Below are positions 10,103 to 62,378 of a stretch of DNA of 64,000 nt, one piece after another. Every line of letters begins with the position of its first letter. The first letter of the stretch is position 1. The notes below the pieces were generated by a model. The model worked only from the letters and a program-made list of their open reading frames with translations, had not been told where the DNA came from and did no database searches. The position numbers were made by a program, and so were the translations under genes. The stretch is taken from assembly GCF_044647545.1 (NCBI RefSeq), contig NZ_CP172818.1; one strand, 5' to 3'. The stretch comes from Escherichia coli. GTDB lineage: Bacteria; Pseudomonadota; Gammaproteobacteria; Enterobacterales; Enterobacteriaceae.

Positions 10103-12034
10103 ATGAGTTATCAGGTCTTAGCCCGAAAATGGCGCCCACAAACCTTTGCTGACGTCGTCGGCCAGGAACATGTGCTGACCGCACTGGCGAACGGCTTGTC
10201 GTTAGGGCGTATTCATCATGCTTATCTTTTTTCCGGTACCCGTGGCGTCGGAAAAACCTCTATCGCCCGACTGCTGGCGAAGGGGCTAAACTGCGAAACC
10301 GGCATTACCGCGACGCCGTGCGGCGTGTGCGATAACTGTCGTGAAATCGAGCAGGGGCGCTTTGTCGATCTGATTGAAATCGACGCCGCCTCGCGTACCA
10401 AAGTCGAAGATACCCGCGACCTGCTGGATAACGTCCAGTACGCTCCGGCGCGTGGTCGTTTCAAAGTTTATCTCATCGACGAAGTGCATATGCTGTCGCG
10501 TCACAGCTTTAACGCACTGTTAAAAACCCTTGAAGAGCCGCCAGAGCACGTTAAGTTTTTGCTGGCGACGACCGATCCACAGAAATTGCCGGTGACGATT
10601 TTGTCACGCTGTTTGCAATTTCATCTCAAGGCGCTGGATGTCGAGCAAATTCGCCATCAGCTTGAGCACATCCTCAACGAAGAACATATCGCTCACGAGC
10701 CGCGGGCGTTGCAATTACTGGCGCGCGCCGCTGAAGGCAGCCTGCGAGATGCCTTAAGTCTGACCGACCAGGCGATTGCCAGCGGTGACGGCCAGGTTTC
10801 AACCCAGGCGGTCAGTGCGATGCTGGGTACGCTTGACGACGATCAGGCGCTGTCGCTGGTTGAAGCGATGGTCGAGGCCAACGGCGAGCGCGTAATGGCG
10901 CTGATTAATGAAGCCGCTGCCCGTGGTATCGAGTGGGAAGCGTTGCTGGTGGAAATGCTCGGCCTGTTGCATCGTATTGCGATGGTACAACTTTCGCCTG
11001 CTGCACTTGGCAACGACATGGCCGCCATCGAGCTGCGGATGCGTGAACTGGCGCGCACCATACCGCCGACGGATATTCAGCTTTACTATCAGACGCTGTT
11101 GATTGGTCGCAAAGAATTACCGTATGCGCCGGACCGCCGTATGGGCGTTGAGATGACGCTTCTGCGCGCGCTGGCGTTCCATCCACGTATGCCGCTGCCT
11201 GAGCCAGAAGTGCCACGCCAGTCCTTTGCGCCCGTCGCGCCAACGGCAGTAATGACGCCAACCCAGGTGCCGCCGCAACCGCAATCAGCGCCGCAGCAGG
11301 CACCGACTGTACCGCTCCCGGAAACCACCAGCCAGGTGCTGGCGGCGCGCAAGCAGTTGCAGCGCGTGCAGGGAGCAACCAAAGCAAAAAAGAGTGAACC
11401 GGCAGCCGCTACCCGCGCGCGGCCGGTGAATAACGCTGCGCTGGAAAGACTGGCTTCGGTCACCGATCGCGTTCAGGCGCGCCCGGTGCCATCGGCGCTG
11501 GAAAAAGCGCCAGCCAAAAAAGAAGCGTATCGCTGGAAGGCGACCACTCCAGTGATGCAGCAAAAAGAAGTGGTCGCCACGCCGAAGGCGCTGAAAAAAG
11601 CGCTGGAACATGAAAAAACGCCGGAACTGGCGGCGAAGCTGGCGGCAGAAGCCATTGAGCGCGACCCGTGGGCGGCTCAGGTGAGTCAACTTTCGCTACC
11701 AAAACTGGTCGAACAGGTGGCGTTAAATGCCTGGAAAGAGGAGAGCGACAACGCAGTATGTCTGCATTTGCGCTCCTCTCAGCGGCATTTGAACAACCGC
11801 GGCGCACAGCAAAAACTGGCTGAAGCGTTGAGCACGTTAAAAGGTTCAACGGTTGAACTGACTATCGTTGAAGATGATAATCCCGCGGTGCGTACGCCGC
11901 TGGAATGGCGTCAGGCGATATACGAAGAAAAACTTGCGCAGGCGCGCGAGTCCATTATTGCGGATAATAATATTCAGACCCTGCGTCGATTCTTCGATGC
12001 GGAGCTGGATGAAGAAAGTATCCGCCCCATTTGA
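10103..12034 (+). CDS. dnaX: DNA polymerase III subunits tau (full length) and gamma (via -1 frameshift)
   Basis: 643-aa ORF MSYQVLARKWRPQTFADVVGQEHVL with Walker A GTRGVGKTS; recognised as DnaX. Confidence 0.97.
   Translation: MSYQVLARKWRPQTFADVVGQEHVLTALANGLSLGRIHHAYLFSGTRGVGKTSIARLLAKGLNCETGITATPCGVCDNCREIEQGRFVDLIEIDAASRTKVEDTRDLLDNVQYAPARGRFKVYLIDEVHMLSRHSFNALLKTLEEPPEHVKFLLATTDPQKLPVTILSRCLQFHLKALDVEQIRHQLEHILNEEHIAHEPRALQLLARAAEGSLRDALSLTDQAIASGDGQVSTQAVSAMLGTLDDDQALSLVEAMVEANGERVMALINEAAARGIEWEALLVEMLGLLHRIAMVQLSPAALGNDMAAIELRMRELARTIPPTDIQLYYQTLLIGRKELPYAPDRRMGVEMTLLRALAFHPRMPLPEPEVPRQSFAPVAPTAVMTPTQVPPQPQSAPQQAPTVPLPETTSQVLAARKQLQRVQGATKAKKSEPAAATRARPVNNAALERLASVTDRVQARPVPSALEKAPAKKEAYRWKATTPVMQQKEVVATPKALKKALEHEKTPELAAKLAAEAIERDPWAAQVSQLSLPKLVEQVALNAWKEESDNAVCLHLRSSQRHLNNRGAQQKLAEALSTLKGSTVELTIVEDDNPAVRTPLEWRQAIYEEKLAQARESIIADNNIQTLRRFFDAELDEESIRPI
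11386..11397 (+). other. dnaX: dnaX programmed -1 ribosomal frameshift site (A AAA AAG heptamer, then -1 frame GAG TGA ending gamma)
   Basis: Heptamer AAAAAAG at 11386..11392 in the correct phase (codons AAA AAG at 11387..11392), -1 frame stop TGA at 11395..11397, and a GC-rich hairpin CCGGCAGCC...GCGCGCGGCCGG starting about 6 nt downstream. Confidence 0.9.
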
Positions 12035-22761: not shown

Positions 22762-24414
22762 ATGAAATTATTGCAGCGGGGCGTGGCGTTAGCACTGTTA
22801 ACCACATTTACACTGGCGAGTGAAACTGCTCTGGCGTACGAGCAGGATAAAACCTACAAAATTACAGTTCTGCACACCAATGATCATCATGGGCATTTTT
22901 GGCGCAATGAATATGGTGAATATGGTCTGGCGGCGCAAAAAACGCTGGTGGATGGTATCCGCAAAGAGGTTGCGGCTGAAGGCGGTAGCGTGCTGCTACT
23001 TTCCGGTGGCGACATTAACACTGGCGTGCCCGAGTCCGACTTACAGGATGCCGAACCTGATTTTCGCGGTATGAATCTGGTGGGCTATGACGCGATGGCG
23101 ATCGGTAATCATGAATTTGATAACCCGCTCACCGTATTACGCCAGCAGGAAAAGTGGGCTAAGTTCCCGTTGCTTTCCGCCAATATCTACCAGAAAAGTA
23201 CCGGCGAGCGCCTGTTTAAACCATGGGCGCTGTTTAAGCGTCAGGATCTGAAAATTGCCGTTATTGGCCTGACGACGGATGACACAGCCAAAATTGGTAA
23301 TCCGGAATATTTCACTGATATCGAATTTCGTAAGCCCGCTGATGAAGCGAAGCTGGTGATTCAGGAGCTGCAACAGACAGAAAAGCCAGACATTATTATC
23401 GCGGCGACCCATATGGGGCATTACGACAATGGTGAGCACGGCTCTAACGCACCGGGCGATGTGGAGATGGCACGCGCGCTGCCTGCCGGATCGCTGGCGA
23501 TGATCGTCGGTGGTCACTCGCAAGATCCGGTCTGTATGGCGGCAGAAAACAAAAAACAGGTCGATTACGTGCCGGGTACGCCATGCAAACCGGATCAACA
23601 AAACGGCATCTGGATTGTGCAGGCGCATGAGTGGGGCAAATACGTGGGACGGGCTGATTTTGAGTTTCGTAATGGCGAAATGAAAATGGTTAACTACCAG
23701 CTGATTCCGGTGAACCTGAAGAAGAAAGTGACCTGGGAAGACGGGAAAAGCGAGCGCGTGCTGTACACCCCTGAAATCGCTGAAAACCAGCAAATGATCT
23801 CGCTGTTATCACCGTTCCAGAACAAAGGCAAAGCGCAGCTGGAAGTGAAAATAGGCGAAACCAATGGTCGTCTGGAAGGCGATCGTGACAAAGTGCGTTT
23901 TGTACAGACCAATATGGGGCGGTTGATTCTGGCAGCACAAATGGATCGCACTGGTGCCGACTTTGCGGTGATGAGCGGAGGCGGAATTCGTGATTCTATC
24001 GAAGCAGGTGATATCAGCTATAAAAACGTACTGAAAGTGCAGCCATTCGGCAATGTGGTGGTGTATGCCGACATGACCGGTAAAGAGGTGATTGATTACT
24101 TGACCGCCGTCGCGCAGATGAAGCCAGATTCAGGTGCCTACCCGCAATTTGCCAACGTTAGCTTTGTGGCGAAAGACGGTAAACTGAACGACCTGAAAAT
24201 CAAAGGCGAACCGGTCGATCCGGCGAAAACTTACCGCATGGCGACATTAAACTTCAATGCCACCGGCGGGGATGGCTATCCGCGCCTTGATAACAAACCG
24301 GGCTATGTGAATACCGGCTTTATTGATGCCGAAGTGCTGAAAGCGTATATCCAGAAAAGCTCGCCGCTGGATGTGAGTGTTTATGAACCGAAAGGTGAGG
24401 TGAGCTGGCAGTAA
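22762..24414 (+). CDS. ushA: Periplasmic UDP-sugar hydrolase / 5'-nucleotidase UshA
   Basis: 550-aa ORF with signal peptide and metallophosphoesterase motifs (HTNDHHGH, GNHEFD). Confidence 0.96.
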   Translation: MKLLQRGVALALLTTFTLASETALAYEQDKTYKITVLHTNDHHGHFWRNEYGEYGLAAQKTLVDGIRKEVAAEGGSVLLLSGGDINTGVPESDLQDAEPDFRGMNLVGYDAMAIGNHEFDNPLTVLRQQEKWAKFPLLSANIYQKSTGERLFKPWALFKRQDLKIAVIGLTTDDTAKIGNPEYFTDIEFRKPADEAKLVIQELQQTEKPDIIIAATHMGHYDNGEHGSNAPGDVEMARALPAGSLAMIVGGHSQDPVCMAAENKKQVDYVPGTPCKPDQQNGIWIVQAHEWGKYVGRADFEFRNGEMKMVNYQLIPVNLKKKVTWEDGKSERVLYTPEIAENQQMISLLSPFQNKGKAQLEVKIGETNGRLEGDRDKVRFVQTNMGRLILAAQMDRTGADFAVMSGGGIRDSIEAGDISYKNVLKVQPFGNVVVYADMTGKEVIDYLTAVAQMKPDSGAYPQFANVSFVAKDGKLNDLKIKGEPVDPAKTYRMATLNFNATGGDGYPRLDNKPGYVNTGFIDAEVLKAYIQKSSPLDVSVYEPKGEVSWQ

Positions 24415-24421
24415 TCCGAAA

Positions 24422-24445
24422 GTGCCGGATGTTCGCATCCGGCAC
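24422..24445. terminator. Bidirectional hairpin between convergent ushA and ybaK
   Basis: GTGCCGGATG-TTCG-CATCCGGCAC, perfect 10-bp stem, 8 nt after the ushA stop. Confidence 0.65.
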
Positions 24446-24450
24446 AATGC

Positions 24451-24930
24451 TTAATCGCGACGGGCGATATCAGCAAATTTGGCATCGAGTATCTTTGCCA
24501 GGTCGCTTGCCGCCAGTTCGATATCCAGACCGCGCTTGCCGCCGGAAACATAAATAGTGGCAAATTCTTGTGCGGGGGTGTCGATAATCGTTGGCAGACG
24601 TTTTTTCTGCCCCAGTGGGCTAATCCCTCCAACCAGATATCCCGTCGAACGCTGCGCGACCATCGGATCGGCCATCTCAACTTTCTTGGCACCCAGCGCT
24701 TTTGCTACTTTTTTAAGATCCAGTTGACCTGCGACCGGCGTAACGGCCACGGCAAGGTGTTTCATATCACCGTTCACTGCGACCAGCAGCGTTTTGTAGA
24801 CCTGATCCGGATTCAAACCTAATTTTTTGACGACTTCATCGCCAAAATTGGTTTCAGCCGGATCGTGCTCGTAGGTGTGGATTTGAAACGAAATCTTGTT
24901 TTTTTCGAGTAATTTAACTGCGGGTGTCAT
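24451..24930 (-). CDS. ybaK: Cys-tRNA(Pro)/Cys-tRNA(Cys) deacylase YbaK
   Basis: 159-aa [42 protein letters not shown]. Confidence 0.95.
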
Positions 24931-25051
24931 GGTAATTTTCCTGCCTTAAACAAAAAAACGAAGCAAGCATACGCCTGATGGCGGTCCAAAAAAAAGAGTC
25001 ATCTTGCCTAAGAGTATTGGCAGGATGGTGAGATTGAGCGACAATCGAGTT

Positions 25052-25135
25052 ACACCGTCGCTTAAAGTGACGGCATAATAATAAAAAAATGAAATTCCTC
25101 TTTGACGGGCCAATAGCGATATTGGCCATTTTTTT
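25052..25135 (+). ncRNA. chiX: Hfq-dependent sRNA ChiX (MicM/SroB/RybC)
   Basis: ACACCGTCGCTTAAAGTGACGGCATAATAATAAAAAAATGAAATTCCTCTTTGACGGGCCAATAGCGATATTGGCCATTTTTTT recognised as ChiX; ends in hairpin GGCCAAT/ATTGGCC plus T-run; located between ybaK and ybaP as in K-12. Confidence 0.85.
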
Positions 25136-25928
25136 AGCGCAACATCTGCGGCAAATTCCCTTCTCCATACAGGTGTAGTGCACCAACCGCGACCACATAT
25201 CGCCCCGGCGGCATGGCGCGTAATTTGTCCCGCCAGGCGAGATTTCGCTGATGCATCAGCACATCGTACAGCGACTGACTGAACGTATTAGGCAGCGTTA
25301 TTTCATTATTTTGTGGCGGTGTATTCAGCCACCAGCTCATCATTTGTTGCAGCAACCGTGCGTTGGTGTGCCAGTGGGTCAGCGTATCGTCCAGCAGCGC
25401 CAGTCCGTTGTCAGGGAGCTGGAGCAACATGGCAATCTGGTTTTCTGCCCCTTCCAGTTCAATCACGGGTTTATGTTGTTGCTTCGCCGCCTGCAATAGC
25501 TGGTAATCGATACCGTATTCTGCCCGCAGCCCCAGTTTTTGTGCCTGCGTCGCCTGAAGAACCATCGCGATTTGCCACAGCGGTTGGGTAGAAAAGAGTG
25601 AGGTAGAAATGCCCATCTCCTGGCTAATGTGCTGCAGGTTTTGTAATTGCTCCTCGCTAATGCGCTCTTCCAGCGCCTCGCAGGCAGGCAAATTAGCAAA
25701 AGGCGTATCGCTGGTGGAAACATCCGCCTCGACGATCAGCGCATCGGCGTTTTTGAGCTTTTTGAGCAAACGGGTGGGCAGGGGAGCCATATCGTGGCTA
25801 CCCATATGAATACTGCCGAGCAGATGAAAATGGCGATTGCCGGGAAGAGAGATATCGATAGCAGGCCAGGTGTAATGATTACCGCGCAGCGCGGCCCAAA
25901 GCGTTTTTACCCGATACAACAGATCCAT
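25134..25928 (-). CDS. ybaP: TraB/GumN-family protein YbaP
   Basis: 264-aa ORF MDLLYRVKTLWAALRGNHYTWPAIDISLPGNRHFHLLGSIHMG. Confidence 0.92.
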   Translation of the reverse strand: MDLLYRVKTLWAALRGNHYTWPAIDISLPGNRHFHLLGSIHMGSHDMAPLPTRLLKKLKNADALIVEADVSTSDTPFANLPACEALEERISEEQLQNLQHISQEMGISTSLFSTQPLWQIAMVLQATQAQKLGLRAEYGIDYQLLQAAKQQHKPVIELEGAENQIAMLLQLPDNGLALLDDTLTHWHTNARLLQQMMSWWLNTPPQNNEITLPNTFSQSLYDVLMHQRNLAWRDKLRAMPPGRYVVAVGALHLYGEGNLPQMLR

Positions 25929-26089
25929 ACGACCTCCCTTTGTGAAATATCATGCTAGCGCGCGGGGAGGGATGGCGCAAATGGAGTTGTTGTCGCACTT
26001 GTGCACAGTGCTTGTGTGCATTACAATAATTAAACAATGGACAAGGAGATGAGAATGGAATGGCTCAAAAGAATAATATAAGGAGTTTT

Positions 26090-26347
26090 CGTGATCCTGC
26101 TGGCTGATTTTTTTTTCCATTCAACCCCACATCAAAAAATCCCTCTAAAATCCATACCACTTATCACAAAAGTGGACATCATTAATCCCCCCCCTTCTCT
26201 CCGTTTTCCCCCCCCCCCGAAACGAAAAAAAAAGTTTTGGAAAAAAAAAGAAATTTCCCCAAAAAAAAAAAAAAAAAAAAAAAAAAATAAAAAAGGGAAA
26301 AAAAAAAAGGAAAAAAAATTTTTTTAAAAAAAAAAAAAAAAAAAAAC
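26090..26347. other. Anomalous homopolymer-rich low-complexity tract (probable sequence/assembly artefact); not coding
   Basis: A runs longer than 25 nt, C runs of 8-10 nt and T runs; composition unlike any flanking E. coli sequence; the track ORFs here are poly-K and poly-F. Confidence 0.6.
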
Positions 26348-26379: not shown

Positions 26380-26751
26380 ATGAAACAGGCAACAAGAAAA
26401 CCGACGACACCCGGAGATATTCTTCTCTATGAATATCTGGAACCGCTCGATTTGAAAATCAATGAGTTAGCAGAGTTACTGCATGTTCATCGTAATAGCG
26501 TCAGTGCACTGATCAATAATAATCGTAAACTCACCACTGAAATGGCATTCCGTCTGGCGAAAGTTTTTGATACCACAGTCGATTTTTGGCTAAACCTCCA
26601 GGCGGCAGTTGATCTTTGGGAAGTTGAAAACAACATGCGTACCCAGGAAGAATTGGGACGGATTGAAACAGTGGCTGAATATTTGGCACGCCGTGAAGAG
26701 CGTGCAAAAAAGGTCGCGTATATGCGCCACCCTAAAGCAGTGCATCCGTAA
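26380..26751 (+). CDS. ybaQ: XRE-family HTH protein YbaQ (HigA antitoxin-like)
   Basis: 123-aa ORF MKQATRKPTTPGDILLYEYLEPLDLKINELAELLHVHRNSVSALINNNRKLTTEMAFRLAKVFDTTVDFWLNLQAAVDLW; pattern typical of HigA-family HTH. Confidence 0.9.
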   Translation: MKQATRKPTTPGDILLYEYLEPLDLKINELAELLHVHRNSVSALINNNRKLTTEMAFRLAKVFDTTVDFWLNLQAAVDLWEVENNMRTQEELGRIETVAEYLARREERAKKVAYMRHPKAVHP

Positions 26752-53976: not shown

Positions 53977-54021
53977 CTATTACCTTTAAAGCGGATGCGA
54001 TTTATATCGCATATTGACTAC

Positions 54022-54048
54022 AAAAAAAGCCACGGAATAAACCGTGGC
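54022..54048 (-). terminator. Rho-independent terminator of allE (minus strand)
   Basis: Minus-strand GCCACGG-TTTATT-CCGTGGC followed by TTTTTTT, about 40 nt after the allE stop. Confidence 0.75.
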
Positions 54049-54090
54049 AAAATCCAACATAGCTAAAAATAATCAGGCGAGTGGTATGAC

Positions 54091-62191: not shown

Positions 62192-62378
62192 GCCTGATGC
62201 GATGCTGGCGCGTCTTATCAGGTCTACAGGCGGTGTCGGAACGGTAGGCCGGATAAGGCGTTCACGCCGCATCCGGCAATCGGCACACCATGCCTGATGC
62301 GATGCTGGCGCATCTTATCAGGCCTACAGTCGGTGTTGGAACGGTAGGCCGGATAAGGCGTTCACGCCGCATGCGGCA
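62192..62378. repeat. BIME: two tandem copies of a REP-pair unit (about 87 bp each, period about 100 bp)
   Basis: Unit 1 at 62192..62278 and unit 2 at 62292..62378, each GCCTGATGCGATGCTGGCGC.TCTTATCAGG.CTACAG.CGGTGT.GGAACGGTAGGCCGGATAAGGCGTTCACGCCGCAT.CGGCA, differing at only a few positions. Confidence 0.85.

Follow-up and report, generated by a model that had tools for sequence, protein, structure and literature searches.

The plus-strand segment 25052-25135 of the window (the whole stretch of 64,000 nucleotides of Escherichia coli DNA that was analysed) is almost certainly the chiX gene, which encodes an 84-nt, Hfq-dependent class II small RNA. The segment is rightly identified as ChiX, a known and ordinary gene: the K-12 chiX allele at its usual place. 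No data contradicting this identification were found. ChiX is a textbook case of small RNA control, being a constitutive and catalytic silencer of a chitoporin that is inactivated by an mRNA decoy, as well as the strongest known Hfq competitor. Its presence confirms that the window is an ordinary segment of the E. coli chromosome. The analysis yields nothing new on ChiX itself, and its by-products are a correction of the seed position and the finding that the overlap between the terminator and the ybaP stop codon is ancestral. The gene and its neighbours are located as follows:

24451-24930, minus strand: ybaK, Cys-tRNA(Pro) deacylase, the upstream neighbour, divergent from chiX (ORF, Pfam, RefSeq)
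25052-25135, plus strand: ChiX (MicM/SroB/RybC) small RNA, 84 nt (RF00368, identity to K-12, survey of E. coli genomes)
25134-25928, minus strand: ybaP, TraB/GumN family, the downstream neighbour, convergent with chiX (ORF, Pfam, RefSeq)

Read directly on the plus strand, the sequence of 25052-25135 is ACACCGUCGCUUAAAGUGACGGCAUAAUAAUAAAAAAAUGAAAUUCCUCUUUGACGGGCCAAUAGCGAUAUUGGCCAUUUUUUU. The whole window was searched with Rfam 15 (cmscan, gathering thresholds), which gave four matches in total. The match to RF00368 (sroB) spans exactly 25052-25135 on the plus strand and is full-length (model positions 1-83 of 83), with a score of 82.1 bits, far over the gathering score of 44, and an E-value of 1.8e-10. 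SroB, RybC, MicM and ChiX are synonyms for one RNA (PMC4098024). Alignment of the window to K-12 MG1655 gave 84 identical positions out of 84 with chiX (b4585, NC_000913.3 507204-507287). The original prediction, made from the letters alone, that this stretch is ChiX is thus upheld by both the covariance-model search and the alignment to K-12 chiX. The 121-nt spacer between ybaK and chiX is wholly identical to K-12 as well, and the first difference between the window and K-12 is a single base inside ybaP, 16 nt past the end of ChiX and at synonymous level. The K-12 record lists 'ncRNA chiX, b4585' at 507204-507287, flanked by ybaK (506603-507082, minus strand) and ybaP (507286-508080, minus strand). 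K-12 chiX therefore has the same 84 nt, promoter spacer, flanking genes, orientation and 2-nt stop overlap as the window, with no difference within the gene. The 3' end of the 84-nt RNA is set by the K-12 annotation together with the T-run. In a survey of complete E. coli genomes, the 84-mer is present as a single copy, at the same locus, in 5422 of 5426, with an identity of at least 99% in 5011, and a 1.4-kb piece of the window (24400-25800) is also found in 5422 of the 5426 genomes, 100% identical in many of them.

The placement between ybaK and ybaP is confirmed by the open reading frames, by Pfam (tRNA_edit for YbaK, E 1.5e-22; TraB_PrgY_gumN for YbaP, E 1.5e-43) and by the K-12 annotation, and ChiX has been recorded as flanked by these two genes (PMC3384567). 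The gene had also been expected to escape annotation based on open reading frames, and this is indeed the case: the RefSeq/PGAP record of a strain that is identical over 24400-25800 lists only ybaK and ybaP, with no ncRNA feature at the locus, and the non-K-12 RefSeq/PGAP records that were checked have none at the chiX locus. Annotation of the ORF-based or PGAP type leaves chiX unmarked in most strains.

Two predicted transcription signals enclose the RNA:

25017-25045, plus strand: putative promoter-like site, with the -35 element TTGGCA at 25017-25022, a 17-bp spacer and the -10 element GACAAT at 25040-25045 (scan)
25108-25135, plus strand: predicted Rho-independent terminator, with the stem GGCCAAUA/UAUUGGCC at 25108-25127, the loop GCGA and U7 at 25129-25135 (scan, fold)

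The RNA starts at 25052, 7 nt beyond the putative -10 element. TTGGCA-17-GACAAT is the sole sigma-70-like match on either strand between 24600 and 25600 and agrees with the consensus at 9 of 12 positions. This count of one is at chance level, as 1.2 matches are expected in shuffled sequences, and support for the promoter therefore comes from its position and conservation and not from the scan. The (G)ACAAT motif also precedes the hairpin at the loci of Enterobacter, Citrobacter, Pluralibacter and Superficieibacter. At the other end, an intrinsic terminator had been proposed and is borne out: the terminator scan called a plus-strand stem at 25108-25127 (8 bp, of which 4 are GC) that is followed by ATTTTTTT. 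Both signals of an independent transcription unit, a promoter of its own and a Rho-independent terminator, are thus predicted for chiX.

The hairpin lies directly beyond the stop codon of ybaP and overlaps it, and the stretch could for this reason be seen as only the 3' end of ybaP or a bidirectional terminator, not as an independent RNA gene. This reading is extremely improbable. No minus-strand terminator was called by the scan at the ChiX hairpin, because the stem on this strand is followed by CGUCAAAGAGG and not by a U-run, whereas the plus strand has a promoter-like site, the U7 tract and a full-length match to a curated small RNA family. Furthermore, an independent ncRNA is annotated here in K-12, and plus-strand ChiX is observed in very large numbers in published RIL-seq data. 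In the spacer between ybaK and chiX (24931-25051), the scan found nothing on the minus strand that resembles a sigma-70 promoter for ybaK, so that ybaK may in part be co-transcribed with ybaP across chiX. The only terminator-like element on the minus strand of this spacer is a weak 5-bp hairpin at 24977-24964.

The independent gene chiX encodes an RNA whose predicted structure has a free energy of -24.1 kcal/mol (z = -3.9 relative to dinucleotide shuffles): a hairpin at the 5' end (nt 4-22) is joined by an open, A-rich stretch to the terminator hairpin (nt 57-76). Its inner elements are:

25055-25073, plus strand: 5' stem-loop, nt 4-22, 8 bp (fold, pairing probabilities)
25077-25088, plus strand: four consecutive AAN triplets AAUAAUAAAAAA, nt 26-37, in the A-rich linker nt 24-44 (direct reading)
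25096-25109, plus strand: target-pairing (seed) region UCCUCUUUGACGGG, nt 45-58, anti-Shine-Dalgarno (complementarity, Rfam consensus)

In the base-pairing ensemble, nt 4-10 and nt 16-22 are paired with a probability of about 1, and the unpaired probability of nt 23-31 and nt 41-45 is at least 0.87 and mostly at least 0.96. The AAN tract AAUAAUAAAAAA is unpaired in the fold. An (AAN)n tract and a U7 3' tail, the sequence features of a class II Hfq small RNA, are therefore both present here, with the AAN/ARN motif defined as in PMC7987339 and PMC5575007. This agrees with the published descriptions: 'ChiX contains four AAN motifs', and deletion of AAN motifs weakens its competition for Hfq (PMC7987339), and the (ARN)x motif of MicM has been placed at nt 26-44, with a stem-loop on either side (PMC5575007).

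The identification of the RNA came with a proposal that ACACCGUCGCUUAAAGUGACGGC (nt 1-23) is its C-rich seed, and this part is not borne out, as the segment forms a base-paired 5' stem-loop that lacks any complementarity of at least 7 nt to the targets. Judged by complementarity, the actual seed is the anti-Shine-Dalgarno segment at 25096-25109 and not the 5' segment. As chiP and chb are outside the window, the K-12 chiP leader and the K-12 chbB-chbC spacer served as targets, and pairing was assessed from exact complementary runs and unpaired probabilities. RNAduplex on the full-length RNAs was also tried, which resulted in over-extended and uninformative duplexes that ignore intramolecular structure, and it was replaced by the exact-run search. 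This search showed that nt 45-56 (UCCUCUUUGACG) are a perfect 12-nt complement of CGUCAAAGAGGA in chiP, at positions -19 to -8 from the AUG, a site that covers the Shine-Dalgarno sequence. In addition, nt 47-58 (CUCUUUGACGGG) are a perfect 12-nt complement of the site CCCGUCAAAGAG in the chbB-chbC spacer, to which nt 38-44 of ChiX are complementary as well. By our own arithmetic, about 6e-4 perfect 12-nt matches per target are expected by chance at these RNA lengths. The segment nt 45-58 is mostly unpaired in the ensemble.

Many enterobacterial small RNAs, such as RybB and MicA, have their seed at the 5' end, and a 5'-terminal seed ACACCGUCGCUUAAAGUGACGGC that contacts the targets would be in keeping with this common arrangement. 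It is very unlikely for ChiX, since nt 4-22 are base-paired at a probability near 1, and the exact-run search found no complementary stretch as long as 7 nt between the 5' hairpin and chiP or chbBC; nt 45-58, by contrast, match each of the two targets perfectly over 12 nt. Moreover, the 5' segment varies between genera (CCGAAGGUCUCCUUCGG in Enterobacter and CCGGAGUUCGCUCCGG in Superficieibacter) while the hairpin is retained, and the Rfam RF00368 consensus is lower-case (variable) in the 5' hairpin and upper-case (highly conserved) across AAAUUCCUCUUUGAC. A structure that is kept while its sequence varies would be expected of a structural or protective element, which is the opposite of a seed.

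A further alternative for this part of the RNA is that it encodes a small protein from the AUG at 25089 (MKFLFDGPIAILAIF...), as the AUG at nt 38-40 opens a frame of 29 codons. The chance of this is close to nil: the frame has no stop within the 84-nt RNA and reaches its first stop only at 25176-25178, beyond the terminator; upstream of the AUG there is no Shine-Dalgarno sequence, only an A-tract; and the AUG is not conserved, with AAC at this position in Pantoea and AAG in Serratia.

The regulatory role of the non-coding ChiX has been described in published work on the identical K-12 RNA, and for the present strain it is inferred from this identity. ChiX would be made constitutively; in K-12, expression is constitutive and deletion of chiX raises chiP reporters 30- to 74-fold (10.1101/2021.05.11.443692). 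The RNA would bind Hfq with its U tail at the proximal face and its AAN tract at the distal face, in agreement with the contacts reported for the poly-U tail and the A-rich region, respectively (PMC5006887, PMC9068810). Pairing with the chiP ribosome-binding site would then block translation and lead to decay of the mRNA. It would also cause Rho-dependent termination within chiP-chiQ, keeping the chitoporin off, and ChiX at the chiP ribosome-binding site has been described to expose a rut site for Rho (PMC6582626). Induction of the chb operon by chitosugars would supply a decoy, the chbB-chbC spacer, for the seed that also recognises chiP, and the resulting decay of ChiX would de-repress chiP. 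Repression of chiP by ChiX has been reported, and so has the decoy role of the chb mRNA, which binds ChiX by base pairing and brings about its degradation (PMC4098024). Abundant ChiX would in addition titrate Hfq from other RNAs, and the class II small RNA ChiX, which binds two faces of Hfq, is known to outcompete other RNAs for Hfq (PMC5006887, PMC9068810, PMC7987339). RIL-seq data contain abundant chimeras of plus-strand ChiX (507237-507289) with chbC.chbB.IGT, chiZ (the chiP 5' UTR) and proQ (PMC10954441 supplement). The chiP 5' UTR is annotated in K-12 as the small RNA ChiZ (b4808; L003 4237-4334, K-12 708236-708333), which contains the ChiX pairing site and is abundant in RIL-seq chimeras with ChiX.

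A similar architecture is known from MgrR, CyaR and McaS, which like ChiX have an (AAN/ARN)n tract flanked by stem-loops and a U-rich 3' tail; this class II architecture binds both the proximal and the distal face of Hfq (PMC5575007, PMC9068810, 10.1101/2021.05.11.443692). The sequences and targets of these three RNAs are unrelated to those of ChiX. Among class II RNAs, ChiX stands out as constitutive and catalytic, and its control lies with an mRNA decoy and not with its own transcription (PMC5006887, PMC4098024).

Homologues of ChiX were collected by scanning species-representative genomes once with the exact pattern AAATTCCTCTTTGAC N18-26 TTTTTT, which resulted in at least 120 loci. Among the matches listed, about 111 loci belong to Enterobacterales and have the ChiX architecture, with genera including Escherichia, Salmonella, Citrobacter, Klebsiella, Enterobacter, Kluyvera and Serratia, as well as Yersinia, Rahnella, Hafnia, Pantoea, Erwinia, Proteus and others. 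About nine of the matches listed are chance matches in unrelated taxa without this architecture (Clostridia, Bacillota, Bacilli, Coriobacteriales, Desulfobacteraceae, Alcaligenaceae/Bordetella and one unclassified proteobacterial MAG) and were dropped. The seed core is fixed in the scan pattern, and its invariance in the sample is therefore by construction and not evidence; only the Rfam consensus supports seed conservation independently. All 12 of the most distant loci that were tested are full-length matches to RF00368 (61-86 bits), and the Salmonella arizonae locus (L096) scores 84.9 bits. A tblastn search with YbaK and YbaP of the window showed that the order ybaK(-)/chiX(+)/ybaP(-) is kept in nearly every locus listed that has enough flanking sequence. 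ChiX of Salmonella enterica and other Enterobacterales shares the seed, the terminator, the A-rich linker, the synteny and the Rfam family with the RNA of E. coli, from which the ChiX RNAs of other Enterobacterales differ in the sequence of the 5' hairpin and at a few linker positions.

Conservation of structure was studied in a MAFFT alignment of 97 distinct homologues among the matches listed. As the 5' hairpin is too divergent to align, column-wise covariation was counted for the terminator stem only, and each 5' region was folded individually. In the terminator stem, 99.1% of the cells are paired across these 97 homologues, and two pairs have a compensatory AU-to-GC change on both sides. 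Of the distinct 5' regions among the matches listed, 69 of 86 form a hairpin with a z-score below -1.5, with quite different stem sequences.

The end of the ChiX terminator coincides with the end of the convergent gene:

25134-25136, minus strand: TAA stop codon of ybaP, which shares 25134-25135 with the final two T's of the ChiX tail (ORF)

An overlap of the terminator T-run with the stop codon of the convergently transcribed ybaP had been noticed from the sequence, and it holds, with 2 nt shared and the TAA at 25134-25136. The same 2-nt overlap is annotated in K-12, where chiX ends at 507287 and ybaP starts at 507286. In a survey of 108 species loci among the matches listed, in which each ybaP frame was walked to its stop, the 2-nt overlap (the T-run plus A giving TAA) was observed in 81 loci, across 32 genus-level labels and at YbaP identities from 54% to 98%. 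Five Pantoea loci have an overlap of 1 nt, and 18 of the 108 loci listed have a gap between the ybaP stop and the terminator. Unlike in E. coli, the stop of ybaP often lies apart from the terminator in Pantoea, Buttiauxella, Rouxiella and Hafnia. Where the T-run is followed by a G, as in Kosakonia sp. S29 (L078) and Enterobacter sp. ENT03 (L039), the shared TAA is lost and ybaP extends 17 nt into the terminator. In Phytobacter massiliensis (L045), which also has a G after the T-run, ybaP extends 87 nt over the whole small RNA gene, which may be an artefact of frame or annotation. The C-termini of YbaP vary (MLR* in E. coli, MLK* in Enterobacter and PQG* in Serratia) while the position of the stop is retained.

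The overlap between the terminator and the ybaP stop is ancestral to much of the Enterobacterales. Its conservation is not evidence of a regulatory link, and the overlap is most likely an ancestral tight convergent packing that has been frozen by the conserved terminator and has no known regulatory role. The literature search found no study of the ChiX/ybaP overlap, only annotation remarks.

It is unlikely that the sharing of sequence between the ybaP stop and the ChiX U-tail is functional and not mere packing, acting through a ChiX sponge or polymerase collision. As the scan called no minus-strand intrinsic terminator directly beyond the ybaP stop and no promoter-like site for ybaK, ybaP transcripts may read through chiX. 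A read-through RNA would contain the exact antisense sequence of ChiX, with the chiP-like site CGUCAAAGAGGA in it, and could then act as a cis-encoded sponge of ChiX. As an alternative to the sponge, strong constitutive transcription of chiX might throttle ybaP and ybaK via polymerase collision. RIL-seq has recovered minus-strand Hfq-associated fragments at K-12 507215-507289, named 'ybaP.EST3UTR' and chimeric with ArcZ and SdsR (PMC10954441 supplement); these fragments were 'considered to be ChiX' by the authors of that work. Their counts in the RIL-seq tables are roughly 0.2% of those of ChiX, a level in line with antisense artefacts that a highly abundant RNA leaves in such libraries. The fragments are either such a strand artefact or a real ybaP read-through transcript, and the existence of a real read-through RNA antisense to ChiX is doubtful. 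As the overlap is ancestral, the question of an antisense ybaP read-through is cheap to test.

Several observations were made elsewhere in the window. A gene for a RelE/ParE-family (HigB-like) toxin is located at 26085-26347, upstream of ybaQ/higA, and is intact in otherwise identical strains. In the window it decays into homopolymers, with poly-A of up to about 28, poly-C of about 11 and a progressive loss of G. The best match of 26085-26347 in a complete E. coli genome is 84.9%, with flanks that are 100% identical, and the decay appears to stem from faulty sequencing or assembly of the source record and not from biology. At about 26729-26751, ybaQ (the higA antitoxin) lacks approximately 20 nt of its 3' end compared with NZ_CP033850.1; this loss removes the normal stop, and the open reading frame 26380-26751 therefore encodes 123 aa instead of 113 aa. 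Finally, Rfam matches above the gathering score were obtained for the DnaX programmed-frameshift element at 11367-11431 (96.8 bits), the small RNA STnc480 at 54018-54084 (84.1 bits) and naRNA4/CssrE, a REP-type element, at 62247-62324 (83.1 bits).
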